From Reclinomonas americana ATCC 50394 (Eukaryota): a DNA stretch of 35,618 nucleotides. Positions 1 to 35,397 of the stretch are shown here, in pieces (within the stretch, counting starts at the first letter, position 1; each line of letters starts with the position of its first letter). The stretch covers positions 104,198 to 139,815 of the forward strand of contig PS015419.1 of NCBI GenBank assembly GCA_048213135.1, written 5' to 3'. Below the pieces are notes generated by a model. That model was not told the DNA's origin, did not search any database, and saw only the letters and a list, made by a program, of their open reading frames with translations. A program made the position numbers and the translations under genes.

Positions 1-2893
1 CGCCAGCCGATTCAGCAACATTTCCTTTTCTCGGAAAAGCTGCGTTTCACGCTCCGTTAGCTGATCCATGCGCTCCTGCCACTCGAGCTCCTGTTCGCAG
101 GAAGCACGAAGCTCGATAAGAACCTCACTAAATAAGCACAATACACGCGCGGCCACACAAACCGCCTCCTGCTTCTGCTGCTCCAAGTCGACTTCGTCCT
201 TGTGCAAACTCTCCGCCAGCGAGAGGAACTCGGTCATCTTTTGTCGGGCGTGTTGAACCAGCTCCGTCACGTGACTTTGTGTCTGCGTTTGCGCACACAG
301 TGAGTCGCCACATGAAGAGGGGAGACTGCAACGACAACATACATACCTTGCGAAACTCACTCGGCACGTGACTGTCGGTGACCAGAAACGCACATCGCTT
401 CGCAATCACGGCGCACTTCTCCTCGCACACCGACACCAACTGACGCAGCGTCGGCAGCGTGTCGAATCCGCCCTGCAGCGCCAGTGTGCGTGGCGTGCTG
501 GCGCGCCCGTCGTAGCCTACACACACACAGTCAGCAGGGACACACACACACACACACCAGATAACAGAGAGCGCATGCCACTCGCCATTCGCCGGTGTGC
601 TGGGCGACGAGTTCGACGAGCTGGCCACCAGATCGGCGCCGCCAGCCACATGGTCGGCCAGGATCTCGACCTGTCGCAGTTGCATCAACTATGCGAGCGG
701 AGGGTGAGCGACAACGAACGAACAAGCAACCACGCTTTCCACCACCGCGGCCAACCTTCTCGTCAATCAACGCCTCGTACGTCTGCACCGACTTGAACAG
801 TGACACCGGGTTGGGGTCGTGATCGATCAGCACCAGCGTGGCTTGCGCCACACGGTCGACCAACGACGGATATTTCTGCATGCGCGTGGAGGAGGAGCAC
901 ACCGGTTTCATATTGCGGATTCACAGATCACGTACATGGACAACTGACTCACCTCGGAGAGATGGAGAAACTGGCGACTGAGAAAGTCCAACCGCCGCAG
1001 CAGAGTAATATGGTCCTGTTGGCGCAGCGACGGTCAGCAATGCAAGTGAGTGAAGGTGCCTTTCCAACACACTCGTACACACACACACACCTCATCGACA
1101 CCTCTGCGACATGCAACACCACCACAGCAGTGAGGAATCATTGGGGGTCTGGTGGCAATGCAAATCGACCAACTCACCGCAGCAGGAAGCCAAAGAGTGA
1201 CTTGACCGACGACACGTCTTCGTGCGGGTACAGCAAGCACGAGCGGAAAATGTCGGCCACCGTTTCGCTCTTCATCAGCACCTGCTCGTCGCTACTGTGA
1301 GACACACGACACACAGAAGAGACATGCGGGTACTGCACGCACATCGCGGAATGTGTGCATGCGACCAGAGGCGTCAACGTATTGTGGCGCACGACTAAAC
1401 GTGCCGACACCATCGCGGCCTTCGGAGAGTTTGCGAATGAGAATGTTAAAGTACACACTCCGCACCGGCTGCGCGCCGCAAAGTCAGTCAGGAATCACCT
1501 AAACCCCGCAACAAAAGGATGGGTACGAACCGGTCGGAGGCACTCGTCGCGCGCAATTTCAAAGCACTGGTGCAACTCGTCCACCGTCTGCGCACTGTCG
1601 ATGCGGCGAATGAGCATCTCCACCAGCGACAACTCCTGCATCATGCGGACATGCATCGTCAGCAACAATACCAATGACAAAGACGCACACACACGCGTGC
1701 ATACGGGCACGCAACATCCGACGGGATGGCATCCTCCGAGTGCAGCGACTGCGTGTCGACCGCAGCCACCACAGACGACACCGACGACGACGCGGAGCCG
1801 CTCGGCGCCGACACCTTGGTTTGTGCCGGCGGCTGATGCACCTGCAAGTACGACAGCGGCGGGTCTCGAGCCGACGGCAGGCGTGCCGACACTGAGCTGT
1901 CGACGCTACTCGACAGACCACGCAGGGTGCCACCACCGCCACCATGTTCATCATCATCGTCCTCTTCGTCGTCATCCTCCTCGTAGGCTTCATCGTCGTC
2001 GTCCTCCTCGTCCTCCTCATCGAAACCATCGTCGTCTTCGTCGCCACTGGAGCCACTCTTCTCATGATAATACGCAGCGGCGGTGCGACGACGGCCGCGA
2101 TGGCCACGACCCGCCGCCTCATCATCGTCATCCGCGTCGCCACTATCCGAGCTGTCGCTTGCACGCTGCACGCGCAGCTTGCGTGCCGCAGGTGCTCGAC
2201 CATCTCCTCCTCCTCCTCCTCCTCCTGCAGCAGCACCACCTGCGCCAGTCGCTGTTGCCGCAGCTGCCGTCGCCGCACCTCCCGATCCCGACGCTCCCGT
2301 ATTCCACTCGTGCGGCTTGACCAGGTAATCCAACAAGATATTAAAGTCATCCGTGGGCTTATTCTGCGACGCCAGGTACCGCATGCACTGCACAACGAGC
2401 TCTTTCGAGAAGCCAAACCCCTGTTGTTGTTGTTATAAAATGTCAAATGCACAATGACAACGCAGCGAATGCACTCAACATTGACCAACTGCTCGACAAG
2501 ATGCGTGCGCGACTCTGACGCGCCTGGAGTCGTGCGTCCCGAGCCACCAGAGGCCGTCGCAGCCGCTCTCCCAGGAGGCACCTCAAACGCCGAGATGAAT
2601 GACGAGGCTCTGGGCTTCACAGTCAACACAAACACAATCACTCACAGAGCAAAGAGCAAAAAGAGAGAGCGCAACGAAGAGCGCTGCTTTGTGCGTCGTC
2701 CCTTGCGCTTTCGTCGTCGCGCAGCCGAGGATGCAGTCGACGAGGATGACAACTTGCCGGGTGAGAGGCCGTGATGATGCGCGTCCACTCCCAGTGCTCC
2801 TCCTGTTGCTCCTCCTGTTGCTGCTGATGCAGACGATGAGGGAGGCTCGTGTGGTGCATGGGCAAGCACCTGGAAGGGGTTGTGCGTGCTCAT
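1..2893 (-). CDS. Uncharacterised multi-exon protein (3' end outside window): UBA-like helical motif, acidic/Gly-rich low-complexity tract, helical middle, C-terminal coiled coil
   Basis: ATG at 2893 (alternative 2908). Removing 12 introns (11 GT-AG, 1 GC-AG) gives one open frame: MSTHNPFQVL...LVEQLVN|GFGFSKELVVQCMRYL...DDFNILLDYL...ELSLVEMLIRRID...LEQQKQEA|ELEWQERMDQLTERE. No family recognised. Confidence 0.7.
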
Positions 2894-2940
2894 CGTCCCT
2901 CGACTCATCTTGCGGCACAGCAGGACAAGCGCGTGATCAA
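2894..2940. promoter_or_regulatory. Minimal head-to-head spacer between the unknown gene and PPIL2
   Basis: 47 nt between inferred divergent ATGs (32 nt if ATG 2908 is used). Confidence 0.5.
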
Positions 2941-5359
2941 ATGTCGTCCAAGGGCAAAGCCCACAACAAGGTGTGTGTGTGCCTCACTGTCTGTCTCTGC
3001 GTCTGTCTCACTCACTCTCTCTTGGTGCAGTTGTACATCACTCAGAAGGAGTGGGTGGAGAGCTTTGGCGGCAAATCGACTGCTGCTGAGCGCGAACATG
3101 TGCCCTTTCGTGTGCTTCCCTTTGATCACTGTGCGCTCAGTCTGCAGCCGGCACTGACGCCTGTCATTGCTCCTGATGGCACTCTCTTTGACATTGTGTT
3201 GCGTGCGAGGAACAGAGAGAGGGTCAACTTGCGCTGTGACTTATGCTGGTGTGTGTGTGTGTGTGCGTGTGTGTGTGCGTCGTCGTTGTCGCGCAGCAAC
3301 ATCCTGCCGTACTTGAAAAAGTACAAGATGCACCCGTGCACGGGCGAGCGTCTGAGTGCCAAGGATCTCACACGCGTGCACTTCCACAAGAACAAGGACG
3401 GCGAGTATCACTGCCCGATCACGTTCAAGGTGTTCACGCCGCACTCGCACATTGTGGTGATCCGCACCTCCGGCAACGTCTACTCGTGGGAGGCTGTCAA
3501 CGAGATGAACATCAAGATGAAGATGTGGAAGGATCTGCTCACCGATGAGCCCTTCCAGGGCCGCAAGGATATCCTCACGCTGCAGGACCCCAAGCAGGTG
3601 GCCAACAAGGACCCTGCGCGCTTCGACTATGTGCTCAAGGGCATTCGTGTGGTCGACGGCGAGCTGGCCGAGCGCATGAAGGATCCCTCGTTCTTCCTCA
3701 ATGTCAACTCGTCCACGGCGCGTGTCCTCAAGCGCATGGAAGAGGAGAAGGTGTCGGAGGCCACCATTCTGCCCAAGTCGGTGCTGGAGCGCATGGAGAA
3801 GCGCGAGGAGGAGGGTGAGTGGAGTGGCAAGAGGGTGCGAGGAGTTGAAGAGGACTCATTTTTGTTTGCATGTCGCAGATGCCACCCACTCGGCCGCGGC
3901 CGACTGGAAGTCGCGGGTGGAGCCGAAGCGCTCCACGACCAGTGCACCGTCTTTCACATCGACGGCCGTCAACCTTCGTTGCGTTCAAGTGGTGGTTGTC
4001 TTTGACGGCATCGTCGTTGTAAGGGCTCATTGGTTGGTGGGGGTGAACAGAGACGGAGACCAAGTACGGCGACGTGACCGAGGAAGATCGCCGTCGTGTG
4101 CAGTACGCGTGGCTGCGCAAGAAGAAGAAGAAGGGCTACGTGCAGTTGGTCACCACCCTCGGCGACATTAATATCGAGTTGCACTGCGATATGGTTCGTG
4201 TGTTGTGTGTCGCTGCTGTGGGTGTCTTGTGTGTGAACATGATGCTTATCAAGTGAGTGAGCACAGGCGCCGCGCACCTGCGAGAATTTCATCGGCCTGG
4301 CGAACAAGGGCTACTACAACGACACCATCTTCCACCGCAGCATCCGAAACTTTATGGTTCGCGCTCTCTTTCCCCTCTCCTCTACCCTTTGTTGGCGTCT
4401 CTCTCAGTCAACGTCTTTTCCGTGTGCGTGACCACAGATCCAAGGTGGCGATCCGACAGGCACCGGTCGCGGTGGCCAGTCGCTGTTCGGGCACAAGTTT
4501 GACGACGAGTTTGATCTGCGCTTGCACCACGACGCACGCGGCCTGCTGAGCATGGCCAACAGCGGACCGGGTACCAATGGATCGCAATTGTTACGTGGTG
4601 CACGTGTGGTGCTTGTAAGATGACGCCAAAGATGGCTGATCTTGGTGCACACTGCGCAGCTTCATCACATACAAGCCGTGCACACATCTGGACCGGAAAC
4701 ACACCATCTTTGGCCGTATGGTCAACGGAGAGGACACGCTGCGTGCCATGGAGGTGGTGCCGACGGGTGCCGATGACCGACCTGTGGTGAGTGAGCACGT
4801 GGTGTGACCCTGGGTGACGATGAATGCATTGTGTCTCATGGTGATTGCGCAGGAGGAGATCAAGATCCTGCGCATCAATGTGCTCGTCAATCCGTTTGAA
4901 GGTTGGAAAGCTGTCCGTGCCTCGGTTGTGCCTCTTCGTACTGCAAACTAACTTCTGCTCCGTGGCGTAGAGAATTTCCTGCAAGACGAAGAGGAACGCG
5001 AGCGCAAAGCCGCCGAGGTCGAGCGGCGTGCAGAGGAGCGCGAACGTGGCGATGACCCCGGCATGTGGTACTCGAATCCAACTCCTGTGGCGCAGCCGGT
5101 GGCTGCGGCCGGCCACTCGGGTGTGGGCAAGTATCTGCGCGCGCGTCTCGAAAGCAGTGCGTTGTGCCATAGGTTGTGGGAGAGTCCTTTTTTTCCAACG
5201 CGTCCTCACTCTTTGCGTCACACACACACAGCTGGCACGAAGCGCGCCCCCGAGGAGGAAGTGGTGGCGGATTTGGAGGCCGAGGATATTGTCGTGCCGC
5301 AAAAGAAGAAAAAGAAGGCGATCACCGGGCAGCAGTTTGGCGACTTTTCTGGTTGGTGA
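2941..5359 (+). CDS. PPIL2: RING-type E3 ligase/cyclophilin PPIL2 (Cyp60): N-terminal U-box-like region plus C-terminal cyclophilin domain; 11 exons
   Basis: Spliced motifs [126 protein letters not shown]; ends FGDFSGW*. Confidence 0.96.
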
Positions 5360-5437
5360 CCATGGAAAGCAATACACAGACAACAAGGGGCGTGTACAAT
5401 TCATGGAGGAGAATGGGTCTGCGTCTGCTTCCGCTTC

Positions 5438-7260
5438 TCACTGCTGCTCGCGTGTTGTCTTCCGCTTGCTGACGTCGTCGGTGACACCGTCGACTTCGTC
5501 CGGAATGCCGCCGCCCTTGAAGAGCGAGCGCAGCAACTTGACGGCTCCCCACGTGATCAAAAACGCCCAGTAGTAATTCAAAATCGTGGCCAGCGTGAGC
5601 GCCACAAAGAAGCACAGGAGCAGGAGAGGCTGCAAATACACCACGATTGAGAAAGGGAGGGGATCAATGAGTGGGTGAGGCGGAAGCAGCAGCGTACCGT
5701 GACACTCCAGAACAGCTCCGACTCGGTGTACACGATCCACAGCACGTACGGCGTCATGGCGACGCGGAACAACAAAAACCCGCCGCACATGAGCACTCCA
5801 TTGATCTGCGGGACGAGCGACGGTTGAGGACCACCGCGACACGCAGCACGAGGAGAGGGTGGGAACGCAACGGCAAAAGGCAGCGACTCGCGCTTGCCGA
5901 TCTTGGTCCACTGCCAGCGGAAGTTGACCGAGGGGGTGGTGATCTCCGTTCCCATAAAGAGCAGCACCTGCCGTGATGGCGGAGAGTGAGGAAAAGGGGA
6001 GCGAGTTTGCAAACAGATGTCTGAGGACGCAACAATGCCCGTCATCTGTCGGTAGCTGCCGGCGTGAAAGGAAGAGAGTGAGTCTGCAGAGTGGCGATGC
6101 ACGATTGAGAGGGACAAGGGCAAACCTGAATGCCAGCGGGAAGACAATGATGCCCATGCTGCGAGAAACGACAGTAAGCACCATTATCACTCGAAAGGGC
6201 ATGGAAAGCCGTGCTCACATGTGATGCACGAGGGTCCCGACACTGAAAAACGTCTTCTGGTCGACAATCATCGTGACGCTGCGAGTGGAGTGAGCAGTGG
6301 AGATGTCACGAAGATCACTAAGACATGACGCAACAGATCGCAGTAAAAGTACCCGGCGCAAATGCCACAGCACCACAGGCTGCACGCACAACACCGTCAG
6401 CACCACAACACTCTGCGGCGCGACAGCAGAGGCGACAAGAAACAGACCCCGATTGGCTGGTTCCGCGCATCATTTCAGCCGTGGTGGCATAGTCGCCCGA
6501 GTAGAACAACGAGTACCCCGCAAACCCTGCAACAGGAGGATGAGCACCTCAGCGCAACACACTCCTCCAAACACACACACACACACCAGCGACCACAAGC
6601 GCATGAATCGTCGACAAGTGACGATTGTAGAACTGCAACTGCACGAACGCGGTCAAACTGACAAGCACGACACACAGAGCAAGACACAGTGGAGGCCACT
6701 CAACAACGTCACTGCGTCTCAACTGATGCACAGCAGCATGCGGGAAGATGGCATACATGTACGGAGCTGCAACAACAGCACAATCAGCAGCATGCACAAT
6801 GCATTGATCAAGGCAACACCACACAGCGTACCAGACTCCTGCACAAACGCACACACAACCGCTGTGCACAAGACGGTTATCACCTACACACACACACACG
6901 CGCGAGCACAAGCACGCACGCACCAGCCGCCGCCTGCAAGCGCAACAAGAACACCACATCATCCCAATAGACTCCATGCGAGACCGCCTCCACTGGCGAC
7001 CCATCCTCCGCGATAATCGCTGTCTCCGCCGCAGGCACGCGCTTCACAATGAGCACCGACAAGCACACAAGGAGACCGGCGAGGCCCATGACCTCGTTCT
7101 TGCCACGCGGAATCATTGACACCTTCTCTTTCTCTGCCTCTGTAGTGCTGTTGCTCACTGTCTTGCCTGCGCGGTAGGCGGCCTCGTAGGCGCTGTCGTC
7201 GTCATCGTCGTCGTCGCTGTGTGGCACGTTGTTGCCGTCGTCGTAGTGGCGGCGACGCAT
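5438..7260 (-). CDS. TLC (TRAM/LAG1/CLN8) domain membrane protein, TLCD4/TMEM56- or TLCD3-like; 12 exons
   Basis: Spliced TLC motifs LSTIHA, GYFYCDL, LVHHI, TEITTPSVNFRW, INGVLMCGGFLLFRV, LNYYWAFLI, with several hydrophobic segments; ATG 7260, TGA 5438. Confidence 0.88.
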
Positions 7261-7465: not shown

Positions 7466-10400
7466 ATGAGTGACGCGACTGCGACGACAGCCACAGCAGC
7501 GGCGACTGCAGGTGCGGCAGGTGCGACAGGTGCGAGTGGGAGTGGGATCACTGGTGCGCCGGCGCCTGAGGGGCCTCCGTCGTCGTATGCATCCTCGCGC
7601 ACGTATCGCTTCTCCAAGCGACTGGAGGACGCCATTGCAGAGGTGTGCCGCGTGTGAGGATGAGAGGTCGAGTCGAACATGCGGCTCATGTGATGTTGTC
7701 GATAGGTGTTGCCGAGTGACAAGATCTATGACAGCCCGAGCTTTGACATTACGGCGTATGTGAATCAGCGCTTCCCCGATGTGCACTCGTTGGACACGGT
7801 GGATGTGTTTGTGGAGAACCTGCGCAAGGAGATTGCGGATACGGATGCGGAGGTGGCGGAGGCTGTCAAGCGGCAGTCGTCGAATCGACAGGTGGCGCAG
7901 GATTCGCTGTTGGAGAGTCATCGAGTCATGGCTGTGCGTCGCGCTCTGTGCTGCTCGCTGTCTCTGCTTTTTCATTCATTCTCGTGAACATGCAGCAACT
8001 GGCCGACAAGATTGGCGAGATCAAGCGCAAGGCCGAGCGCTCCGAGTCGATGGTGCAGGAGATTTGTCGCGACATCAAGACGCTGGATATCGCCAAGCGC
8101 AACCTCACAGCCACCATCACTGCGCTCCGCAAAGTGCAGGACTTTGGTGCGGGCTTGCCGTGCTGCGCTGTGTGTGTTGGAGAGTACGACTCATCGCCAC
8201 GTTTCCTCTCCGCAGAGTCTGGCCTGACGCAGCTGCAGACACTGTATCCGCTGAAAAAGTATCGCGAGTCGGCCATGCGGTTCCAGGCCTTGCAGGGCTT
8301 CTCCGAGTTCTTCTCTGGCTACCGCGATGTGCCGAAAGTGCGCGCCCTCCAGGGCATGTTCGACGCACATCGTCATGCGCTGCAGACGGTGGTGGTCGAG
8401 GACTTTAAAGCGTTGCGTGCAGCTGGCCCACTGTGTGTGTGTGTGCGCTTGTGTACGCATGCTGCGTCCGCTCACCACATCACGCGCAGCAACTATTCAT
8501 TCAAGTTTACGGGTGACGCACCGCCCATTATCGAGGAGGCGGTGTGGTTGCTGGAGGCACTCGGCGAGACCGTGTGGTGCGTCAAGTGTCCTTGTGCGTA
8601 TGCGTGCGTAAGGCGTGAGTTTCCTGCTCACATGACACGAGCAGGAAACCACTGGTCGAAGGCTGGATGTGCAGCCGCTTTGCCGACGAGTACACGCAGT
8701 TCTTCAATCCACAGCAGGAGGTGTGGAGAGCGTGACTTGTGTGAGTATTCTTCAGTGCCCCTCATTGCGTCCCGTCTGCGCAGCACTCGGCGTTTGAGCA
8801 ACTGGACCGACGCTACATGTGGTTGAAGCGACAGCTGCACAACTTTTCACAAAACTGCGACTTTTTCCCGCCGCACTGGAACGTACTGCAGGGCCTCTGT
8901 GTGGAGTTTTGCTTGCGCACTGGGTGTGTCTCTCTTTGTGCAACTGCGCTCCGTGTTGGTCTCGTTTGCGTGCTCACCCTGCATGACTCGCCTTGCAGCA
9001 ATGCTGTCACACAGCTGCTGGACAGAATGGGTGACGCGCTGAATGTGAACGCGCTGGTCAAGGGCCTGCAGCGCACCATCGAAATCGAGGTGTATCTCAC
9101 ACGCTACTTTGACCAAAAGGCGCGCGGTATCGAGGTACGCGCAGCAGCAGCAGCAGCAGCAGCATGTCGTCCGCCATTGTTTCACTCAGCCAGTCCCCCT
9201 TTTCACAGCCCGACGAGGACCGCGCGGCTCGTGATCCGTCAGGTTCGGCGGCCGCGGAGAAGGAGGACACGGAGATGGACACTATTCGCGCGCATCATCG
9301 CCGCATCCGCGAAAAGTACTTTGTGCGCGAGGAGGAGATCGAAGGTGCGTCACGGGTTGTCGCTGTGGGCCTAGTGTTGCTTTCCCCTGCTGACTCGACT
9401 CCACGCACGCACAGCCAAGAAAACGTCACCAACGAACGGCATTCGATGGGATGGCGAGGGTGCGCCGCCGGCTGCGTGGGCGCGCCGTGTGCGGTGGGAG
9501 GGCCTGATCTCGTCCTACTTCAACACGTACATGAAGATCTACGTCGACCACGAAGACAGGTTTTGTTGCTGTCCCGCGGTGGTTGTGCGTTGCAGGCGCT
9601 GCGTGACTGACTGTGACGTAGACTCATTGGCGAGGCCTACATCAAGCTGTTCGACGAGGAGACATGGGCGCCCAAGGATCCCGAGCGCAGCCTGTCACTC
9701 GACTCGTGCAACAAGCTGTTCTACGTGCTCTCGACCAGCTTCAAGCGCGCCGTGGCACTCACCCGCGGCTACCCGCTCATCGACATCAGCAAGGTGTACG
9801 CCAAGTACCTCGATGCGTACGGTGATGCGCTGAGTGCGCGGCTACCGAAGGGCTCGGCCAGGGATTCCATGTTCAAGCTGCCCGATGTGCTGCACTTTGG
9901 TTCTGACCGGGTTTGTCGCTCTTGCTCTCTCTCCTGTTTGAAGAAACACTCTTCTGTCGCATGTCGACTCACGTGCGTGATGGCTGCAGCGCGAGAAAGG
10001 CGAAGAGATTTACAAGGTGGACGACGCCACACTCATCGGCGTCGCCTACATTGTGGAGACTGCTGAGTACGCGCACGAAACGATCAACTCGCTGATTGGT
10101 AGCATTCGCAAGAATCTGGACGAGGGTTGCCGCCAGGAGATGTTCGAGTTCACCGACACGATTGAGCGCTACGCAACGTGCGTCCCTCGTTCTCCACAGG
10201 CGCATTCTGCGTGTGTTTATTGAGTTGTTGTTGCGTGTGCGCGCGTGCACAGTATCATCTCGCGTGGCATGAAGATCCTGGTGTCGGCGCTGTCAACGCG
10301 GCTGGAACCGGCCATTGGTTCCATTCCCAAGTACGACTGGGACCAGGTCGACATGAGCAGCGAGGGTGCCACGGACAACTCGCCATACGCTCGCGAGATC

Positions 10401-10949
10401 ATTGACTTGATCACCGCCTGCTTCCCGCCAGTGCTGCGCGCCCTGTCCAGCAAGTACCGACGCTTCTTGTGCGACAAGTTCGTCACATCGTTTGTGCCGA
10501 AGGTGCTCGCCAGCATCTACAAGTGCAAGAAAATCAGCGAGGACGGCGGCCACAAGATGCTGCTCGACTTGGAAAGCCTGAAGGCCATTCTGCGGCCACT
10601 GCCGAGCATGGGCGACCCCGACGGCGGCTCCAATGTGCCCGCCAGGTACTCCTGCGCACCCCATCTTTTGTTGACGACGCCTTGCCCTTACCCACATTCG
10701 CTCCTTCTTTCCGCCAACAGCTACACGCGCTTGCTCGACAAGGAGGTCGACAAGATTGTGCGCGTGCTCAAGTTCCTGTTCCAGCCGGCCAACGATGTCA
10801 AGACCACCGTTCTCAACTTCCACTCTCTCATCGGCAACGGCACCGTCAGCGACTTCCAGAAGCTGCTGGAGCTGCGCGGCCTCAAGAGGTCCGAGCAGGC
10901 GCCGTACATTGAGATGCTACAGTCGCACATGATTGGGTCGGCGCCATGA
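7466..10949 (+). CDS. VPS53: GARP/EARP complex subunit VPS53; 14 exons
   Basis: DSPSFDITAYVNQRFPD, IKRKAERSESMVQEICRDIKTLDIAKRNLTATITALRK, LDRRYMWLKR, FPPHWNV, GLISSYFNTYMKIYVDHED, YKCKKISEDGGHKMLLDLESLK, DFQKLLELRGLKRSEQ. Confidence 0.96.
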
Positions 10950-11034
10950 GAGGACGCCTGGTCCGAACGCAATATAGCAACGCACAACAATCTATCCAAG
11001 TCACTGCGGGGGCAACACAAAAACGATATATGTA

Positions 11035-21200: not shown

Positions 21201-21442
21201 AGAAGCGCAAGCATCAGAAGATCAAGACGGCGGAGACGTTGCGTGCCACGTGGGACGATCAGGTGCGACACAGGGTGGCCAGGGAGCAGGAGGAGTTGCG
21301 TCGTGCCCGCGGGATGGTGGATGATGTGTGTGTGGGTGGTTTCTCACCCGTCGTGTGTTGTTCGACGATTAGGTGGGTGGACATGAATACCACCCTCACC
21401 TCCTTGTGCCTCGACAGCGATGTGGCCAACCTCGCAACGTAG
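18207..21442 (+). CDS. CCDC81: CCDC81-like protein: two N-terminal HU/IHF-like domains and a C-terminal coiled coil; about 12 exons
   Basis: VWSATVEYCRDQVERGR|GVRV..F..FGF...RPLFLLDQKF, ITNLNVTVLA and VSFPGIGLL match my recollection of CCDC81 HU-like domains. E/Q/R-rich coiled-coil C-terminus; TAG 21440-21442. Confidence 0.8.
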
Positions 21443-24648: not shown

Positions 24649-25285
24649 ATGGCGTATGGACGCGCAGAGGTGATGGGCCCTGTGCGATTCATGACCACCA
24701 CGCTGCACTTGATCGCAGTCATTGCCGCCGCACTCATGCGAGTTATGTCCGCTCTCTCACACACGCACACACTCACTCACTCACTCTCTCCACGCACACA
24801 CGCACACACACAGGAGACCAACCTCAAGTTCTCCATGTACGATCCGTACGCACCGTCGGACTATTCGCGCATTGAGTTGGAGTTTCGCTCACTCTCTGTC
24901 TCTCTCACATACACACGCGCGCTGGCCTCTCTGCTTACATGTACACCGTGACAGGCTTCTCGTATGCTGCCTGCTCAGCGCACTGGCGTTTATCATTGAG
25001 TACGCCGGACTCTTTGGCGGTTGCACCATGTTTCACCCTGCCTGGAACGCTCTCTGTTGCGCCACACATGCATCCATCGCCCCTTTTCCTCTGTCTTCTT
25101 CTTCTCATTATGTTGGGTATGCAGTGGCGGGGGTGCACTGGGTCGGCGGCATGCTGACGTCGTTCTGGCTCGGCGAAGTCTGGCACTACGCCTATCTGTG
25201 GTACATTAGCGCAGTGTTTTGCTATCTCCCGGCCGCAGCGGAGTTCGTGCGCATTGTGTGGACCCTCAAGTACTCCGACTACTGA
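24649..25285 (+). CDS. TMEM107: Ciliary transition-zone protein TMEM107; 4 exons
   Basis: PVRFMTTTLHL, IEYAGLFGGCTMF, AGVHWVGG, W..YLWYI..FC..LPAAAE; four hydrophobic segments, about 140 aa. Confidence 0.85.
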
Positions 25286-25347
25286 ACACCGACCCGACAA
25301 CGTCGGCCATTGTGCGTCCCATTGACGCAAAATCGACGTGAGTGCGA

Positions 25348-28300
25348 ATGGGAGGCAAGATCTCGCAGCATGCGCTGGCCTTGCAGGAGATCAAGAAGAC
25401 AGTGACCAAGCAGCGCGGCGATTGGGTTCCGTTGAGTCTTTCTTGAATGCGTGTGTGAAGCAGCAGTACGCATCTTTTTTGCTTCTTTGTTGTTTGCATG
25501 CGTTTGTGATTATCGCACGTGCGACCTGTGGTTCTGTGCGCACATGCGTCGACTGCACATTGCACGTACAGCAGTGAGCGATAACGCACAGTGTGTGTGG
25601 TGAGGGGCGGGCGCCCTCCGAAACGTCATTGCGGCCTGACCATGCCGACTTGTGCACGCACTCGCCCTCCACTCTCTGTTCTCCTGCTGTCGCGCACGCT
25701 GCTTCTCCTCTCTGCGCGTGTGTGTGTGCTCCCCGACAGCTTGTGAATTTCGTCGATGAGTGTGTTGTTTGGCACCCGAGGTCACCCGCAACACAAACAC
25801 GCAGAAGAGAGATTCTCCGTGTGCATGTGTGGCATCTTGTGCACACACCACGTGTGTGTTTGCTCGCTCCTCTCTGTGTCCTGTAGTGCGATCCTCAGTG
25901 CGACACGAGTGACAGTTCTTGTGTGTGGGAGGAATTGCCCCGTTCATCGCATCGCTTTTCGCTCATTTGCGTGTTGTGTGGTTGCGCTCAGTCCGACGCG
26001 TCAGTTCTTCCAGCTGGAATGGCCGCACAACTATCACCTGCCTGACAAGCTCGATGGAAAGAAGATTGTGAGAGCTTTATTTTTCTCCTCACTCTGGTGG
26101 CGATGATTGTGACTGATGATGATGATGATGCGCAGTTGGACTTGTTAGAGCAGCTGTTACAGCAAGAAGTGCAGCGGGGAGACCCGGATCGCATCTCGCT
26201 GCTGCTGCGCCTCTTCCAGCGCTTACTCACCAACACGGCGGTGTACAAGGCCTTCAAGAAACGCGATTTGGATGTGTACAGGAGTTGTCTCAACGTGCAC
26301 GACGACGGGTGTGTGTTCGTCCCGCAATGCTTCCCTCCATCGCTGCGCTCCCTCATCGGTGCATGGTGCGCGCAGTGTCATTGTGCATGCTCTGCTCGTG
26401 TTCCGCGGCATCCTCATTGCCGACACTGACGGTTCGTGCATGTTCACTGGATGCAGTCGGTGGCTGAGACAACTCACTTGAATTCGCTGTCTGCGTGTGT
26501 GTCTGCGTCACAGAGCCGGAGGAGACCATGGACACGCAGGCTGACTTGCGACAAGCATTTTTTGACAATCACCAGTTTCCGTGGTCGCCGTTGTCTCTCA
26601 CTGGTGATATCGGGCTGACGATGCTTGTTCATGTGCAGTTTCGCATTCTTGCTGCACAAGTGGAAGGAGCTGGCGCCACTTCGCCGACCGGAGCACCTGG
26701 AACCGCTGAATGTGCGTGACTTGTTGAAGGGAATGTGCTGTGGCAGTCGCTCACCCGTTCACTCCTGTTTCTGCAGCTGCTGTGCGAGGTCCTGGAGCAG
26801 GTCACGTTCCACACGTCCAGTTTCACACCGTACGACGCCATTCTGCAGGTATGCGACCTTCCGCGTTCACCACAGCTTTTAGCGCCCTTTTTCATCCACA
26901 CGATTTATCGTGCAGATCGTCAACGAGTTGACGCAGCCGCAAAACTTGCGTCTGCTGCTCGGCTTGCTGCGCTTTGAGGATGCAACAGTGCGCTGCCGAG
27001 CGGCACGACTCTTCAAGGCAGTGGTGCTGTCGTCAGAGGAACCATCGTTGCCACACGTCATTGTTTGCACACATGTCTGCTCTCTCATGCTCACTCGGTT
27101 TTCCCGCATCAGGTTGAAGCGCATTCAGGAGTCGGCCTACGAAGAGGGCGATCTCGTGTCGCTTCTGTGGTTCATCTTGTCGGAGCCGCGCTCACCTGAC
27201 GATGCCACATTCGTTGCGTGCGATTGCTCGGCGATGCAGCGTGTGTGTGCGCGCGCTCACGTGCTTCTCCGTAGCGTGACTTGGGCATCGACGTTCTCGG
27301 CTTCTTGTGCGACCGCAATCGCGCCGTGTACCAATTCCTGTGTCAGCTCATTCCCGAGCCGCTGGTGGTGGTGGCCGAGAATTACACGCCGCTCCGCGTG
27401 CAAGACGAGGCGCACCGATCCAAAGCCGCACGTCTGAACAAGCAGGAAAAGTTGCGATGCAAGAGCGACGGCCTTGCAGAGATGCAGTGCTAACGCCGTC
27501 CCTCGTGTGCCTGCAGGATGGCCATGTTGACGTGGATTCGGTACAGTGGCTACACGACCGGGTCGTGGAGCGAGATGATTATCACTATTCGCGGCGATCA
27601 CTACGCACCGGATGTGATTTGGAATGAGCGCACTCGCGCCGAGTTGCTGCATGCACTGGCCGAGCAACTGCACGACATGCAAGTGCTGAAGGTGCGTCAA
27701 GTTATTCCAGCAGAGTAGTGGGCGACGTCCTGTTGACTGTGGAAGCGCGTGTGCGTAGCAACGTGGTGTGCGTTGGCCTCCGGACGAGTTCTTTGTAAAA
27801 TATCCTTCCCTCGATCCGGTTCTCAAGGTCGACCGCTACTACGTGGACGTGTTGAACGAGGCTCTCCTCGGGCCCGGTTTCCACGTTGCGTTGGCGATCG
27901 CGCGTGTGGTCCGATGTAAATGTTGTTGTACAATCGCTGACTTTTGGTGGCGCGCAGCTGCCGAATCCCGAGGGTCTTGCCGAGGAGCTGTTCTTGGCGG
28001 CGGTGGTGGAGGACGACCGCATTCGCAAGCGCAGCATCATTGCACTGTTGGCCACCATGACCTCGATCTACGCCGAGTCGTACCAGCACTTTTCGCCGTA
28101 CCGACACATCAAGTATGTGGTGTGGCTGTTGCGATACGCACATGTCGACCGGCTGTGGCTCGACCAGCTGTTGCGCATGCTCCGTGCCCTCATTGAAACG
28201 GCTCCCAATCGAAAGGTGGAGGCGACCTTGTGTGTGCACTCTTTTTCCCGGTCTGTCTTGCTGTGACTGACTCGAGCGATGCAGGCCCTGTTGCAGGAGC

Positions 28301-31300
28301 CCGGTTCCATTGAGCTGTTGCTGCACCACTTGGCCGACATTCATCTGTCGCACCGTTGCGTGCATCCTGCGTGTGTCTCTCTCTTGCAAAGAAAACTTAC
28401 TTTGTAGCCTCTGCAGCGCAAAGCACGTTGCCGCTCACGTACGAGCTGACCGGTGCACCGGCGGCTGCCGACCCATCGCAGATACAGCTGGAGGTCGCCG
28501 GCGCAGAAGGTGGTGAAGCCGACAGGGAGCGCCAGGTATGTCAATTGTACATGCGTACATATGCAGACTTCCCCTACCCTGTCTCATGCTTCTCTTGCAC
28601 CACGCAGGGCTACGCCACTCGTGCCATGCAGATTCTCGACATTTTCGAGCTGCTGTGTGGCTCCTCGTCGGTGCGCCGTGTGCTCGCCGAGGGCACCAAT
28701 TTCAACCACCTGTGCCAGTTGGTGGTGTCGCACGATGCTCTGGTGGTCTCCAAGGCCATCAGCATCATCAACGATGTGCTGTCGGTGTCGCCGCAATTGG
28801 TGCAACACTTGTACCGCACCGGCATCTTCTCGTTCCTCATGCTGCACATGGGCTCGGAGATCAACAATGTCGTGTGCTCGTTCCTGCTGCGATATCACGC
28901 GCTGCAGGAGCACGAGGAGCGCGCCACGCAGCCCATCTACCTCGACTACTTTTTGCCGGGCCCGGTGGTCGGCATTTTGGGCGATCCCGACGGTGACCGC
29001 AAACTCGCCGCTCTCATGCGTGAGGGCGAGTCGCAAGTGGTTTGTGATCCAGCGCCGAATATGTGTGGTGGGGGAAAGGCGAGGTGCACTCACTGCTGTT
29101 TTTCGTGCAGCCTGATTTGTTCTGGAACCGCGAACTGCTGGCACGCACCGTGTCGAGTGTGGAGACGGTGAGTGTGGCCGGTGATTCACAGATCGGCGAA
29201 CGCGTGTTTCTGAGAGGTGTTGTCTATACGGCAGTTCCTCGGCGATTTCCTGTTTGAGTTGCGCCGCAATCCGCGCGTGGTGTACGACTACCAGATTCCG
29301 CCGAGCATCTCATATCCGGGTACGTTTGTCAATGTGATTGTTGGACTTTGTGACATTTCTGCTCACTGACACGCGCTTCAGAGCTCGACGAGGAGCAGTG
29401 TGTCGGCAACATTTACGTGCGCCTGTACCTGCGCCACCCCGACTACGCTCTCGGCGATCCGGAAGCGTTCCTCATGGCTCTCATCGCCGGCCTGGAGAGC
29501 GAGTTGAGTTTTTGGATGATGTGCCTGCACTGTGGTGCTGCTGACTAACTTGTGGTGTGCACAGTGCTCCGACCACGGAACCGTTGATGAGCAATTTGGT
29601 GCGCGCACAAACATGTCTCTTCCAGCGCTACTGCAAGCTGGAGCGCTTCATGCAGTACAGTGGCTTCCCTGTGCTGCACACCAAGTGCATTCAGAATGGT
29701 GCGGTGGAACAAATGATGCGATTGCCTGTGAGAGTCATGTGTGCTAACCTTTTCCCGCTGTGCAGCGACGACGCCCGATCTGGTGGTCTCCAGCATTGAA
29801 CTGGTCTCCACCGTGCTGTCGCTGACTCGATCGGCTGCTGTTGCGTCGCAATCACACACACACACAACACGTGTGCTGTGTGACTGAAAAGGGAAACGCG
29901 GTGCGCAGAATGTGAATTCCTGGAAGGCGGCCGACGGACTGGAAGTGATTCTGCAGCGCCTGCGCACGAACATGGACTTTGGCGACGACTACATTCACTT
30001 CCTCTCCTTCTGTCTGCACACACTGACCAATGCGGCGTTCCTCGATCGCGGCACTCTGGATTCGCTGTGCAGCCCCGACGTCCACATCAGTGCACTGATG
30101 CCGCTCTTTGCTCGCGAGGCTACCGCGCAGTACCCCGCTGTCGTGCACCCCGTTGCGTCTTTTCCCCCATAATCCGGCTGCTAATGTGCTGAACTGACCG
30201 AGTGCGTGTAAAAAGGCGTTGCAAGCGCTGCTGACGCTGGCCCATCGTGTCGAGTTCTCCGAAAAGGTGGTGAACGACGGTATCCTGGTCCACATTCTCG
30301 ACTCGGCACTGTTCATCGAGATTGGCGAGTCGGCGGAGGTGCGCCAGGCGGTGGCCTCTGGCGTCCAAGTTCTCGGCTCGATCGCACGTGACTCGGAGAG
30401 CGCGAGCCAATGGTGAGTGGCGAGAGATGCGTGTGCGTGTGTGTCTTCCCGACGGTGATTCTCATGCCTGCTGCATTGTAGCCTTGAGCGCGCACTCACG
30501 CACGGACTGGTGGTGACTCTCGGCAATCCCGACGCCTTTATTGAGAAGGTCGGCTTGCGAGCAAGAGGGTGATACGGGCCTCATGTTGACATCACTGACA
30601 TGCGATTGATTGATTGTATAGTCGCGCATGGACGTGGAGAACCCGGTGCTGATCTGGAACGCAGAGATGCGCAGATCGCTGGCGACGACTCTGGAAAGCA
30701 AGCTGCGAGACACGCGAGTGACGGGCCGTTTCCACGCCGAGGAGTTTGTCATCACGTACCCGAATGTGGAGCGCGAGGTTTGTCGTCGCTGTCGCTGGTG
30801 TTTGAGATGTGTGATTGGTTCCTCTCCTTCTCACTCTGCTTGAATACAATAGTACGTGGTTGACCACGTGTACGTGCGCGTGTATGTCGCGCAACCGCGT
30901 TTCCCGCTGCCCGACGATTTGCACTTTGCGGAGAGCCTGCTGCGCCTGTTGCGCCAGTGGATCATTCTGCCCAATGCCATTGATCAACGAGTGAGTGTGG
31001 TCGCATGTCGGAAAGATTCCGTTTTGTTCTGATCCCTCTTTTCTCCTCGCAGGAACGCCTGATTCTCAACATCCAGGCTCTGGTGTCGCTGTTCAAGTCC
31101 AAGTTCGTGCACATCCATCTTTCTTTGTCTGCACCTCATACTGACATGCGATGAGCAGGCGTGTCGTCGAGGACGTGGATCCCGACCTGGTTGCCTCGCT
31201 GACGACTGTGTTTGACCGCGTGGTGACGGCTGCCGACCGCGAGCTCGCACTGGAGATGCTGACGCTGCTGGTGGTGCTCGTCAAGTCGTGGTTGGCGCCG

Positions 31301-34196
31301 GTGTTGGTCTGTCTGTCTGTACTTGTGTGTGAGTACAGCAGACTGTTTGGTGAGCTGAATGTGTGTGTCTTCCCATCCATGCAGGTGCCACTGAGCAAGT
31401 CGCTGCTGCGCTTGGTGTACCGCCGGCGCGAGACCATCCCGTCGGACGCCGAGCTTGTGGTGCGAGTATTGGATTTGCTGAATGCCTGTTGCGTGAACCA
31501 TTCATTCCCTTGTGCGTTGTGGTGATGCGTGAGTCTGTTGCTCACAAGCGTGTGTGTGCGCCGTGCTCGAATAGCCACCTCAAGCAGCGAGTGGTGCGGA
31601 AGCATGTTTGACCACGGCCTCGGACTGTTTGTGTTGCGCATGTCGGTGGCTCGCGACCACCCCTCACGCAACGAGGCCATCACCGTCATGGGTGCACTGG
31701 CCACGGACTCCGACTGTGGTGAGGCCTTCAAGGACCTCATGAAGCATCTGCTGATGAACAAGTTTGAAAAGTCGCTGCTCGAGTGCAAGGAGGTGTGTTT
31801 TTGGTTGTTTTCAGTGTCTTGGTGACTGTGCGATGGTGTGCTCACCTCACCGCTTGGTCATCAGAAACCACACAAGTTTGCCAGCTACTACGACTCGACC
31901 CGTGCCGAGGCTGCTGTGGTGTGGAACGATGGCACGCGACACGAATACGAGATTTTGCTCGACCGTGAGGTTTGCTGTTGACTTGCTTTCACTCCCACTC
32001 CCCGTTGCTGACACTCAGATTATTCCTCATACACCAGCTGACCACTCTGTTTGCGTTCCTGGATGCGCACGACACGGACGAGGTCAACTTTGTGTGGCAG
32101 TACAGCAACATTATGGAGCGCTACGACCGGCCCACCCTGCGCCGCGAGCTCCAAGTGTCGGGCGTGTTCATTCGGTACTGTCATGCACACACTGATGAGC
32201 AATCACAACCTCGGCCACTCATCTCTCCTCCTCTCTCTTCTCGCATGCAGTTACTTCAACGAGAACATGTTCAGCAGCATGCCCGACCCGCAGATTTTCT
32301 TCGAGCAGCTGCTGTACATTCTCGATGTGGAAGTGCGCGAGTACGAGCGACTGAGTCGCAGTTGCGTGCCATGATGACGTGGCGACGACACCTGCTTTGG
32401 TATGGAGTCTGACGTTTTCTGTTGCAGCTGGCGGCACTGTGGATGCGCTGGATATTGTCAAGTCCAACGTAACGCTGCTGCTCGAGGCGCTGCACGTGGT
32501 GCTCAAGCGCAACAAGAAGTGAGTGTCTGTGTTCGGTGATGTGTATGCATGTGGAAACTCACACGCACGATTCGTGTCCATGAACACGCGCACAGCCTGC
32601 AATCCGATCATCGCTGCATCGAGAGCATTCCACTGTTTTGCCGCATGCTGTGCGACTACATGCCACCGGTGGTGCACGAGAAGACCGTGCAAGTGTTGAC
32701 TGTGCTGGCGTCGTTCCAGGTCAGTTCTCGTTACCTCTCGCTTCCACTGTCGTTGTGCTGATCAACCTGCCTGCACAGCCGTTTGTGGCCGGCTTCTTCA
32801 GTGGCTACTACCTGCCGCAACTGCTGACGGGCCTGACTCGCCAGTCCTCGGTGGCCACCGGCATCATCACCATCATTCAGGAGATGATCTCGCAGCACGA
32901 TCAGTTTGTCGCACATATGGCGCCGTCCGGTGCCCTCCTCTACCTGCTGCACCTGGCCGTGCAGTCGCAAGACCGCGAGTTGCGCGAGGGTGCCGCCGGT
33001 CTCATTCTGCTGTGCATTGGCAAGCAGCACGCGACACAGACCGCCAGTCGGTGAGTGAGTGGGTGGGGCGCGGTGTGACTTTGCTTCGCTGTGTGATCTG
33101 ACACGGCAGTCGCACCACACAGCTTCATCTTTAGCATCCTGCCGCAGTACTTTGACACGGCCGTCGACTCGAGCCCCCAGTTCTTCATCTCGTACCTGGA
33201 CGAGAATCACATCTCGCCGGAGGAGTTGTGGGAGGACCGACAGCGGTACCTGCTGCGCGAGTTCCTGCAGACCGAGGTCAANNNNNNNNNNNNNNNNNNN
33301 NNNNNNNNNNNNNNNNNNNNNNNNNNNNNNNNNNNNNNNNNNNNNNNNNNNNNNNNNNNNNNNNNNNNNNNNNNNNNNNNNNNNNNNNNNNNNNNNNNNN
33401 NNNNNNNNNNNNNNNNNNNNNNNNNNNNNNNNNNNNNNNNNNNNNNNNNNNNNNNNNNNNNNNNNNNNNNNNNNNNNNNNNNNNNNNNNNNNNNNNNNNN
33501 NNNNNNNNNNNNNNNNNNNNNNNNNNNNNNNNNNNNNNNNNNNNNNNNNNNNNNNNNNNNNNNNNNNNNNNNNNNNNNNNNNNNNNNNNNNNNNNNNNNN
33601 NNNNNNNNNNNNNNNNNNNNNNNNNNNNNNNNNNNNNNNNNNNNNNNNNNNNNNNNNNNNNNNNNNNNNNNNNNNNNNNNNNNNNNNNNNNNNNNNNNNN
33701 NNNNNNNNNNNNNNNNNNNNNNNNNNNNNNNNNNNNNNNNNNNNNNNNNNNNNNNNNNNNNNNNNNNNNNNNNNNNNNNNNNNNNNNNNNNNNNNNNNNN
33801 NNNNNNNNNNNNNNNNNNNNNNNNNNNNNNNNNNNNNNNNNCAAGCTGCAGGTGTCGGCATTCGACCCGTGGCGCGGTGCCCCGCGAGTGCAGGAGGCCG
33901 ATCTGCTGCGCATTAGCAATGCTCTGCGCCCACCGGCGCCCGCGCCCAGCGAGGAGGAAGGTGGCGAGGAGGAGCAGGAGGAACCTACTGTGGTTGCCGA
34001 GGCACCGGCGCCGGTCGCAGCCGCACCGGCTGCACACTTGCCTCCGCCGCCGCCGCCGACCAATGACCCGCTGGTCGCCGTGGCCGCCGCCGCTGCAGCC
34101 GCCGCCGCCTCCGTCCCGCCGTCCACTCGTGCTGGTGACGCACCCACCGCCGCCGCCGCAGCCGCCGACGACGATGGTGGTGATGACCGGTTGTGA
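25348..34196 (+). CDS. Divergent RME-8/DNAJC13/GRV2-like ARM solenoid protein lacking J and GYF_2 domains; about 37 exons, interrupted by an N-gap
   Basis: IWN-type repeats DVIWNERTR, DLFWNRELL, VLIWNAEMR, AVVWNDGTR, EELWEDRQR, plus HLYRTGIFSFLMLH, YPELDEEQCVGNIYVRLY, AQTCLFQRY..QYSGFPVL and GALLYLL, which parallel RME-8. The first exon and the join across the gap are less certain. Confidence 0.82.
33282..33841. other. Assembly gap (560 N)
   Basis: Run of N. Confidence 1.
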
Positions 34197-34236
34197 GCGC
34201 GACACGGAGGGAAAGGAGAGGGAAAGAGTTGTGAAT

Positions 34237-34685
34237 NNNNNNNNNNNNNNNNNNNNNNNNNNNNNNNNNNNNNNNNNNNNNNNNNNNNNNNNNNNNNNNN
34301 NNNNNNNNNNNNNNNNNNNNNNNNNNNNNNNNNNNNNNNNNNNNNNNNNNNNNNNNNNNNNNNNNNNNNNNNNNNNNNNNNNNNNNNNNNNNNNNNNNNN
34401 NNNNNNNNNNNNNNNNNNNNNNNNNNNNNNNNNNNNNNNNNNNNNNNNNNNNNNNNNNNNNNNNNNNNNNNNNNNNNNNNNNNNNNNNNNNNNNNNNNNN
34501 NNNNNNNNNNNNNNNNNNNNNNNNNNNNNNNNNNNNNNNNNNNNNNNNNNNNNNNNNNNNNNNNNNNNNNNNNNNNNNNNNNNNNNNNNNNNNNNNNNNN
34601 NNNNNNNNNNNNNNNNNNNNNNNNNNNNNNNNNNNNNNNNNNNNNNNNNNNNNNNNNNNNNNNNNNNNNNNNNNNNNNNNNNNNN
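34237..34685. other. Assembly gap (449 N)
   Basis: Run of N. Confidence 1.
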
Positions 34686-34738
34686 GAAGAAAAGTGTCCT
34701 GTGTCCCTTCTCTTCGTATCAATCACACACGCACACTC

Positions 34739-34870
34739 ATGAGCCGCCTGTCGCTCCTCCTCGTCGTCGCCGTGTGCGCGGCACTGGTCGCACTCACACT
34801 CGCCGACATGGACCGCACGCCACTCGAGGTAGACTCGGAACTGGCCGTCAGCTCCGCCCAGGTACGCACA

Positions 34871-34915
<45 letters not shown>

Positions 34916-35331
34916 AACACACATTCTCCACATGTCTCACTGTGCGTCCACCACACACACGTACACACAGCGCGGTGTGCACGAGCTCAACCGCCGCCGC
35001 AACCTCGCGCTCCAGATCGGTCGCATCATTCGCGCCGGCTCCTTTGTTGCGCAAGAAGACAACGCCCACACACACACTCTCTCTCTCTTCCCTGTCTCAC
35101 ACACACGCGCACGCATGGCCACAGGTGCACGACGGGCACACGTCGTACGAGACACTGGTGGAGACGGTGGACACGCGCAAGAACAACGAGTACTACGCCA
35201 CCTACATTTTCAACACACTGGAGCGGCACGCCGGCGAGGGCGACGTCGACGATCGCACCGCCGTGGAGAGCATTCGTCGCGTCAGCGAGCACGAGTATCA
35301 CGATCGAGTGCTCGGACGCCGTCGCCGATAA
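34739..35331 (+). CDS. Small secreted protein, possibly cystatin fold; 3 exons
   Basis: Signal peptide MSRLSLLLVVAVCAALVALTLA. Spliced DSELAVSSAQ|RGVHELNRRRN...IGRIIRAGSF|VHDGHTSYETLVET has cystatin-like spacing; TAA 35329-35331. Confidence 0.65.
34875..34908. repeat. (CA)n microsatellite in an intron; similar CA/GT tracts at about 3249-3277, 17005-17025 and 35591-35618
   Basis: Dinucleotide runs seen directly; all fall in inferred introns. Confidence 0.95.
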
Positions 35332-35397
35332 CAAACAACACAAAGAAAAGAGAGTATAACAATGTGGAGAGAGAGGTCTATGGTGCTATGAGTGGGT

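Follow-up and report, generated by a model that had tools for sequence, protein, structure and literature searches.

Gene content of the window and a second class of 5′ splice site

The window analyzed in this study is a 35,618-nt stretch of contig PS015419.1 of Reclinomonas americana ATCC 50394 (positions 104,198 to 139,815, forward strand), with a G+C content of approx. 58%. Pfam matches to single open frames revealed genes on alternating strands, among them those for PPIL2, Vps53, DNAL1, RAB28, TMEM107 and a very long RME-8/DNAJC13-like protein (Table 1), and the introns predicted within them are short and frequent (median length 68-69 nt, approx. eight per gene in the finder models). These introns use two kinds of 5′ splice site (donor). 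Besides donors with a conserved G at intron position +5, there are donors of the form H/GTTGCG(T/C) and, more rarely, GTTGAG, GTTACG, GTTATG or GTTTCG (the slash marks the exon-intron boundary; H is A, C or T), which our analysis confirmed as a genuine, discrete and abundant class.

Abundance of the GTTnnG donors

We designated donors with G at +5 as class A, and those of the form GTTnnG without G at +5 as class B. The introns were predicted with a gene finder that scored codons by log-odds, penalized microsatellite codons, allowed GT-AG introns of 30-260 nt and included an acceptor matrix and a length prior; its donor model was a hexamer table (+1 to +6 only), learnt by expectation maximization (EM) from a uniform start. 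The finder predicted 131 introns: 74 of class A, 30 of class B and 27 with other donors. Class B therefore makes up 23% of all introns, or 30 of 104 when the unclassified donors are left aside (about 23-29% overall). This agrees with a preliminary description of the window, in which GTT-type donors with the conserved G at +6 rather than +5, and H at exon position −1, had been assigned to approx. 35 of 137 introns.

During EM the hexamer GTTGCG climbed from 3 to 23 of the 131 donors and became the commonest of all (GTGCGT, 14; GTGAGT, 11), compared with an expectation of 1.25 if donor positions were independent. When donors were not scored at all, GTTGCG still ranked first (18-19 of 149-171 introns; 2.2-2.6 expected from its 1.5% share of sense-strand GT sites; binomial p approx. 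1e-11), in a run that took over its codon table, its acceptor matrix and its length prior from training on earlier models. The window contains 62 copies of GTTGCG, 20 of them antisense to genes and 42 in the sense orientation; 25 of the latter serve as donors.

All 30 sites of the preliminary description (22 on the plus strand and eight on the minus strand) start with GTT(G/A)(C/A/T)G, and none is preceded by G; the hexamers found there were GTTGCG (24), GTTGAG (three), GTTACG (one) and GTTATG (one). The finder recovered 24 of these sites. Among the other six, 18405 and 29503 were replaced by a nearby donor of the same phase, and 2479, 2675, 19146 and 25431 lie in stretches in which the finder placed no exons. 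The two lists together give 36 candidate class-B donors, every one of which begins with GT. The lengths of 18 of the 30 class-B introns are not divisible by three; 22 of the 30 cannot be read through and eight can. In 21 of the 30 there is no GT of the same phase with G at +5 between 45 nt upstream and the vicinity of the intron end.

Three other finder designs were rejected: a strand-blind version produced overlapping genes on both strands, a trainer with free choice of strand merged genes, and training with only one donor matrix moved towards GTGTGT donors, displacing several GTT sites.

Exon position −1 and composition of the donors

The base preceding the donor, which lies outside the donor table and was thus never seen by the finder, separates the two classes. 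G was present at −1 in only one of the 30 class-B donors, compared with 59 of the 74 class-A donors (Fisher test, p = 1e-13), in one of the 36 combined candidates and in one of the 42 sense copies of GTTGCG. At random sites approx. 29% of bases at −1 are G, and the probability of finding at most one G in 30 is 0.0005. Cross-tabulation of G at −1 with G at +5 for the 51 donors that begin with GTT gave 16, 1, 1 and 33 (p = 4e-11): 16 of the 17 with G at −1 had G at +5, and 33 of the remaining 34 had neither. This near-perfect either/or relationship indicates that class B is not noise. The single exception with G at −1 (cag/GTTTTGT at 9560) is probably a different kind of site.

According to the preliminary description, each class-B donor is a common donor of this genome with one extra T. 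This was not borne out by the composition of the two classes, since GCG occupies +4 to +6 in 23 of the 30 class-B donors and the corresponding positions +3 to +5 in 17 of the 74 class-A donors (Fisher test, p = 5e-7). The information content at class-B positions +4, +5 and +7 was 1.0, 1.3 and 0.9 bits, compared with 0.5, 0.2 and 0.5 bits at the matching class-A positions, and T was found at +7 in 21 of the 30.

Several features of the list stand apart from these comparisons. The exon context AGA precedes five of the 36 candidates (18405, 20756, 21122, and 23866 and 11701 on the minus strand), and GA occupies −2/−1 in nine. Two further predicted donors, at 27047-27053 (plus strand) and 21903-21909 (minus strand), read H/GTTGCC and resemble class B except for C at +6; the former ranked first in a weak homology scan (15.8 versus 11.4).

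Position of the cut in conserved proteins

In the preliminary description, the cut had been placed directly before the G of GTT on the strength of motifs in PPIL2, RAB28 and DNAL1. Four of its 30 sites (3198, 4590, 17256 and 23866) could be compared with homologs at residue resolution; in all four the cut fell at that position, and removal of the intron restored the conserved protein exactly.

The PPIL2 frame 2599-4002 was aligned with human PPIL2 (PDB 7abi_t); the match covers query residues 1-200 and 234-387, with 144-200 falling on chain residues 10-64 and 234-387 on 65-218. At 3198 the frame contains 33 surplus codons and the chain is gapless (FDIV/NILPYL versus FDLL/NIVPWL). All GT/GC-AG pairs were also scanned against a profile hidden Markov model (HMM) of 45 PPIL2 relatives. 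Among 147 candidates, the best score (179.8 bits) belonged to 3198/3296, compared with 173.5 for the GC donor three bases downstream and approx. 159-162 for (GT)n donors. The GTTACG donor at 4590 ranked first of 13 (162.5 versus 149.1) and restored the cyclophilin motif GSQFFIT; sliding both ends of this intron by one base changed the motif to GSQLFIT and lowered the score to 159.0.

In DNAL1, query residues 1-68 correspond to residues 3-70 of the human protein (8j07) and 107-173 to 71-137. The matched residues abut, so that the intron must span exactly 114 nt, as does the one that starts at 17256. Likewise, the RAB28 exon pieces match residues 94-124 (ending in GNK) and 125-157 (xDLEH) of 2hxs_A, which abut. 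One residue is required between K and D (NKxD), and therefore only the donor at 23866 together with the acceptor 61 nt downstream fits; the 37-nt acceptor chosen by the finder for this donor was rejected by homology.

A GC-AG reading of these sites (GTT/GC, with the cut 3 nt further on) was also rejected. It scored 6.3 bits lower at 3198 and added a residue, incompatible with the exact spacing in DNAL1 and with the NKxD motif in RAB28, and there is no GC at 4590.

Profile scans did not place 3978 (PPIL2) or 8412 (Vps53), both of which lie in unconserved linkers, and Vps53 had no PDB match. Junction scans of the RME-8-like gene, whose relatives are 25-35% identical, were mostly uninformative; apart from 27451, 27885, 29503 and 27213 (Table 1), the scores were near zero.

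Class-B introns are otherwise of the ordinary type

Class-A and class-B introns lie side by side within the same genes. A YTSAY branch motif was found in 22 of the 30 class-B and 60 of the 74 class-A introns, at a median distance of 18.5 and 19 nt, respectively, from the 3′ end, with CTCAC, CTGAC and CTCAT foremost in both. The pyrimidine fraction was 0.57 and GCAG was the commonest 3′ end in both classes, and none of 850 5-mers tested was distinctive of the class-B 3′ halves when compared with those of class A (smallest p, 0.006). The two classes are thus indistinguishable in their 3′ halves, which indicates that class B consists of ordinary U2-type GT-AG introns differing only at the 5′ end. 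The motif is GTTGCGT and not the RTATCCTT of U12-type introns, and there is no separate TCCTTAAC-like branch-site class, the 3′ halves being those of the main class.

Class-B introns are unconserved from +8 onward, and an all-against-all blastn comparison of the 131 introns returned only five short matches, all (GT)n-like, with no introner-like families. The absence of shared sequence beyond +7 and of intron families indicates that the donor is not transposon-borne.

The exon downstream of class-A introns begins with C in 39 of 74 cases (CAG/C) and not with the G that is usual elsewhere; in class B, C and G were each found in 10 of the 30.

Register of the donors and pairing with U1

Placing class-B positions +4 to +7 on class-A positions +3 to +6 gave a log-likelihood of −81.9, compared with −314.5 without displacement. 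On the exon side, reading class-B positions −1 to −3 as class-A positions −2 to −4, as expected for a shifted register, gave −127.9, and the unshifted mapping implied by a bulge gave −162.7. These values disfavor a bulged U with normal exon pairing and are compatible with a shift that places G+1 in the slot of exon G−1.

Duplex energies were calculated with the canonical 11-nt U1 5′ end, treating pseudouridines as U and ignoring proteins, and should be read as predictions. The mean was −6.1 kcal/mol for class-A donors, 68 of 74 of which had G+1 opposite C8, and −0.8 kcal/mol for class-B donors, which showed no consistent register. When all 16 dinucleotides were tried at U1 positions 5-6, G-C was predicted to be the best for both classes (−8.8 kcal/mol for A and −5.7 for B), and such a hypothetical variant would place G+1 opposite C9, that is in the shifted register, in 14 of the 30 class-B donors. 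A hypothetical 5′ end with one extra A would give class B −8.6 kcal/mol.

The preliminary description had proposed shifted or bulged pairing with U1, of the kind known from human donors, and this interpretation is partly supported: the displacement on the intron side stands and the exon favors a shift over a bulge, but canonical U1 is predicted to pair hardly at all with class B in any register. It is therefore unlikely that shifted pairing of the human type, with U1 unaltered, fully accounts for class B; a changed U1 5′ end or further factors would be required.

Features of the window

The coordinates of the genes and of the candidate class-B donors are listed in Table 1. Runs of N occupy 33282-33841 and 34237-34685. 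In an Rfam scan of the window no family reached its gathering score, and no small nuclear RNA (snRNA) gene was found within it; the sole match at E up to 1, mir-598 at 16406-16530 (plus strand; 27.5 bits versus a gathering score of 69), is most likely due to chance.

Plain open reading frame (ORF) finding reads through many of the introns, because their length is a multiple of three and they contain no in-frame stop (e.g. 3198-3296, 4357-4437, 8412-8489, 17256-17369 and 25056-25124). Thus, the 468-codon frame 2599-4002 covers the finder introns at 2761, 2854, 2933, 3198 and 3815 and passes the donor at 3978. The commonest hexamers of the window belong to (GT)n/(CA)n microsatellites (GTGTGT, 199; CACACA, 212), which are mostly intronic (e.g. 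3249-3280, 8433-8446 and 24760-24800) and mislead donor training.

The model of the RME-8/DNAJC13-like gene contains at least 34 introns, and Pfam RME-8_N positions 734-776 match 27494-27715. Only 11 relatives were found among 1.8 billion protein representatives; two are close fragments and six are long relatives of 25-33% identity. For a 245-aa exon of this gene, no longer homologous protein was found in a search limited to proteins of at most 2000 aa. The sequence P0079 (308 aa), compared with 28611-29477 of the window, is 69% identical in its best stretch and resembles an unspliced ORF of a related organism: its frame continues across stretches that are introns in the window, and it has 22 additional residues between ...VSP and QLV..., a point (28790/28791) at which the window is intron-free. 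Metagenome scans revealed no relative of the RME-8-like exon or of P0079. At the right end of the window, the minus-strand Pam16 exon overlaps the 3′ part of a plus-strand model (34739-35575), which makes the last two introns of this model (35295 and 35463) doubtful.

Table 1. Genes of the window and candidate class-B donors (exon in lower case; P, coordinate list of the preliminary description, which includes all donors except that at 9560 and those marked absent from P or F only; F, gene finder)
Feature	Donor	Positions	Strand	Basis and remarks
PPIL2		about 2595-4807	+	Pfam
Vps53		about 7466-10949	+	Pfam
CAF1A-like gene		within 11814-16791	-	Pfam
DNAL1		16974-17581	+	Pfam
CCDC81-like gene			+	Pfam
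DXO/RAI1		21530-22872	-	Pfam
RAB28		23371-24502	-	Pfam
TMEM107		24649-25285	+	Pfam
RME-8/DNAJC13-like gene, very long		about 25.3 kb to at least 33.3 kb (about 25300-33281, possibly to 35331)	+	Pfam
Pam16 exon		35401-35616	-	Pfam; right end of window
Donor, PPIL2	tgt/GTTGCGT	3198-3204	+	PDB alignment, HMM scan; intron 3198-3296 (99 nt, in frame, no stop)
Donor, PPIL2 linker	ttc/GTTGCGT	3978-3984	+	F; homology uninformative (unconserved linker)
Donor, PPIL2 cyclophilin domain	att/GTTACGT	4590-4596	+	HMM scan; intron 4590-4659
Donor, Vps53	agc/GTTGCGT	8412-8418	+	F; homology uninformative (unconserved linker)
Donor, Vps53	cag/GTTTTGT	9560-9566	+	HMM scan rank 1/39, 38.6 vs 30.2; G at +6 yet G at −1
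Donor, DNAL1	tca/GTTGCGC	17256-17262	+	PDB 8j07/1ds9 alignments; intron 17256-17369 (114 nt)
Donor	aga/GTTGCGT	18405-18411	+	P, sequence; F took same-phase 18390
Donor	atc/GTTGCGT	19146-19152	+	P, sequence; no exon called there by F
Donor	aga/GTTGCGC	20756-20762	+	P, F
Donor	aga/GTTGCGA	21122-21128	+	P, F
Donor	gga/GTTGCGT	21295-21301	+	F; absent from P
Donor, TMEM107	cga/GTTATGT	24742-24748	+	P, F
Donor, TMEM107	gga/GTTTCGC	24882-24888	+	F; absent from P
Donor, TMEM107	tct/GTTGCGC	25056-25062	+	P, F
Donor	tcc/GTTGAGT	25431-25437	+	P, sequence; no exon called there by F
Donor, RME-8-like	ttc/GTTGCGT	27213-27219	+	F; HMM scan rank 5/7, weak profile
Donor, RME-8-like	aaa/GTTGCGA	27451-27457	+	F; HMM scan rank 1/29, 23.8 vs 20.1
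Donor, RME-8-like	cac/GTTGCGT	27885-27891	+	F; HMM scan tie, 35.3 vs 35.6
Donor, RME-8-like	acc/GTTGCGT	28355-28361	+	F
Donor, RME-8-like	cga/GTTGAGT	29503-29509	+	P; high-scoring tblastn segments of relatives stop at 29503; HMM tie, 55.9 vs 56.9
Donor, RME-8-like	gct/GTTGCGT	29840-29846	+	F
Donor, RME-8-like	ccc/GTTGCGT	30152-30158	+	F; in-frame stop 18 nt inside intron
Donor, RME-8-like	cct/GTTGCGT	31488-31494	+	F
Donor, RME-8-like	gca/GTTGCGT	32361-32367	+	F; in-frame stop 11 nt inside intron
Donor	ttt/GTTGCGC	35046-35052	+	P, F
Donor	cac/GTTTAGT	1394-1400	-	F; absent from P
Donor	gat/GTTGCGT	1709-1715	-	P, F
Donor	aat/GTTGAGT	2473-2479	-	P, sequence; outside gene model of F
Donor	ttc/GTTGCGC	2669-2675	-	P, sequence; outside gene model of F
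Donor	gcc/GTTGCGT	5865-5871	-	P, F
Donor	att/GTTGCGT	6027-6033	-	P, F
Donor	tct/GTTGCGT	6328-6334	-	P, F
Donor	aga/GTTTCGT	11695-11701	-	F; absent from P
Donor, CAF1A-like	gac/GTTGCGC	15261-15267	-	P, F
Donor	cgt/GTTTTGT	16257-16263	-	F only; same-phase GTGCGT 6 nt upstream, so doubtful
RAB28 intron, 61 nt	aga/GTTGCGC (at 23866)	23806-23866	-	NKxD spacing, PDB 2hxs_A; acceptor CACCACAG ending at 23806

Discussion

The explanation that we favor, with a confidence only somewhat better than even, is that class B represents a discrete U2-type class that is read one base out of register by an altered or additional U1 5′ end. Judged from the sequence, recognition might proceed as follows: (i) G+1 of the intron would fill the slot normally held by exon G−1, and U+3 would fill the +2 slot; (ii) G4-C5-G6-U7 would fill the +3 to +6 slots of the recognizing RNA, first U1 and then, necessarily, U6 with one extra nucleotide; and (iii) catalysis would still take place at the only GU present. 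The 5′ end of U1 may be altered at positions 5-6, where G-C would, by calculation, serve both classes best, or there may be a second U1 variant; we propose this because canonical U1 is predicted to pair so poorly with class B. Exon G−1 could then act as a switch, its presence leading to the use of G at +5 and its absence to the use of G at +6.

It is conceivable, but in our opinion rather improbable, that the major spliceosome of this lineage has two insulated modes of 5′ splice site recognition, one based on exon G−1 and G+5 and the other, used by a quarter of all introns, on GUUGCGU shifted by one base, with the latter depending on a rewritten U1 5′ end or a dedicated second U1-like RNA and with exon G−1 as an anti-determinant separating the two.

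Several observations weigh against the favored explanation. The shifted exon mapping is no better than background composition (−127.9 versus −126.6), and G is avoided at −1 more strongly than a shift predicts (P = 0.0025), indeed more strongly than either register predicts. On the exon side the usual signal is lost and G is avoided, with no positive evidence for pairing with U1 positions 10-11. Homology verifies just four of the 36 candidate donors, the others resting on the gene finder or on the preliminary description; the finder made errors (e.g. at 23866, where the acceptor was wrong, and at 29340, 31807 and 28232), and it predicted 27 donors (of 131) that belong to neither of the two classes. 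Moreover, the duplex energies carry the simplifications named above, and all results come from this one 35.6-kb window.

A serious rival, although one that we think rather improbable, is a dedicated second recognizer acting in parallel to canonical U1, either a variant U1 complementary to GUUGCGU that ignores the exon, or U6/U5 and proteins acting independently of U1. It is consistent with the high information at +3 to +7 and its lack in the exon, with the near-zero pairing of class B with canonical U1, with the energy predicted for a 5′ end carrying an extra A, and with the coupling of G−1 and G+5, which resembles two insulated modes. However, the intermixing of the classes within genes and their identical 3′ halves would confine any second factor to the 5′ end, and a single altered U1 accounts for the energies almost equally well.

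Less probable still is a bulged register, in which exon −1, G+1 and U+2 pair as usual, one U of +2/+3 is looped out and G4-C5-G6-U7 serve as +3 to +6. A bulge at +3 (or +2) has been demonstrated experimentally for some human sites (PMC4856993), and it fits the displacement on the intron side as well as a shift does. A bulged helix should nevertheless gain from G at −1 (by approx. 5 kcal/mol for a model site with canonical U1), yet class B and the sense copies of GTTGCG all but lack this base, and the unshifted exon mapping is 35 log units worse. A plain bulge is thus unlikely.

We consider it very improbable that class B is an artefact of gene modeling, with the true donors in intronic (GT)n runs or at the GC three bases downstream and GTTGCG coincidental or coding. 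Nine of the 30 class-B introns do contain, further in, a GT of the same phase with G at +5, mostly in (GT)n, the single-matrix trainer did drift to such donors, and the GC donor scored slightly higher in two weak scans (32361 and 31488). Against this stand the cut at GTT in all four homology tests, the damage done to three of these sites by the GC alternative, the −1 signature that the finder could not see and the enrichment that persists without donor scoring.

Large expansions of minor introns and introner elements occur in some protists. Introners are mentioned in PMC13746701 and PMC12730881. A divergent minor-spliceosome (U12-like) class, or introns derived from transposons that carry their own donor, would account for a long intron-only motif without exon consensus, but the branch motif, branch distance, pyrimidine content and acceptor of the main class, a motif other than RTATCCTT and the five short (GT)n-like intron matches make this the least credible of the alternatives.

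U12-type sites share with class B a long, highly constrained, intron-only motif without exon consensus; they differ in sequence, the class-B branch site, spacing and acceptor are U2-type, and the share of class B is far above that usual for minor introns. Exon- and intron-weighted (“left-handed” and “right-handed”) 5′ splice sites are tied to LUC7 proteins. As in these site groups, exon-side and intron-side pairing are traded in the window, where even GTGCGT donors have less G at −1 (8 of 14), but here the trade-off is nearly all-or-none and is accompanied by a one-base displacement.

In human, shifted and bulged registers are experimentally established, and validated noncanonical registers account for 1.5% of 201,541 sites, compared with an earlier projection of 5.1% (PMC4856993). 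Human +1 shifted sites (GUUAAGU; Roca and Krainer 2009, as cited there) resemble class B in starting with GUU, in having G at +6 and U at +7 and in being cut at GU. Such human sites are rare, whereas class B comprises approx. 23% of introns and the commonest hexamer; in addition, the class-B tail is GCGU, which canonical U1 barely pairs, and exon G at −1 is avoided. The human bulge +3 (or +2) sites (Roca et al. 2012, as cited there) likewise have an extra U between GU and the consensus, but they keep the exon pairing that class B has lost.

Among the papers covered by our literature search, we found none that describes donors of the GTTGCG type. The passages seen on Plasmodiophora (PMC2483917, PMC4471660) deal with intron number, length and branch motifs only; P. 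brassicae, with four introns per gene (PMC4471660) and a median intron of 55 nt (PMC2483917), differs from the window in both number and length. A rhizarian genome with 99.5% GT/AG introns, 13 introns per gene, 82-bp introns and abundant simple repeats, presented without donor logos in the part seen (PMC13746701), resembles the window in intron architecture. In the passages seen of a paper on tunicates, a shifted register is mentioned merely as a possibility (PMC13326754).

For annotation, the consequence is that class-B introns are spliced wrongly by gene finders that rely on one donor matrix, as happened in our single-matrix run, and many introns of this type are in frame and stop-free and so are easily taken for coding sequence.

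Few features of eukaryotic gene expression are as strongly conserved as the 5′ end of U1 and the GURAGU-type donor, and to our knowledge recognition out of register has been described only for human genes, where it is a minor curiosity. If the favored explanation is true, this organism would offer a natural system in which to see what determines the cut site independently of pairing with U1, and would raise the questions of how U6 tolerates one additional nucleotide and whether the 5′ ends of snRNAs evolve together with the classes of donor.

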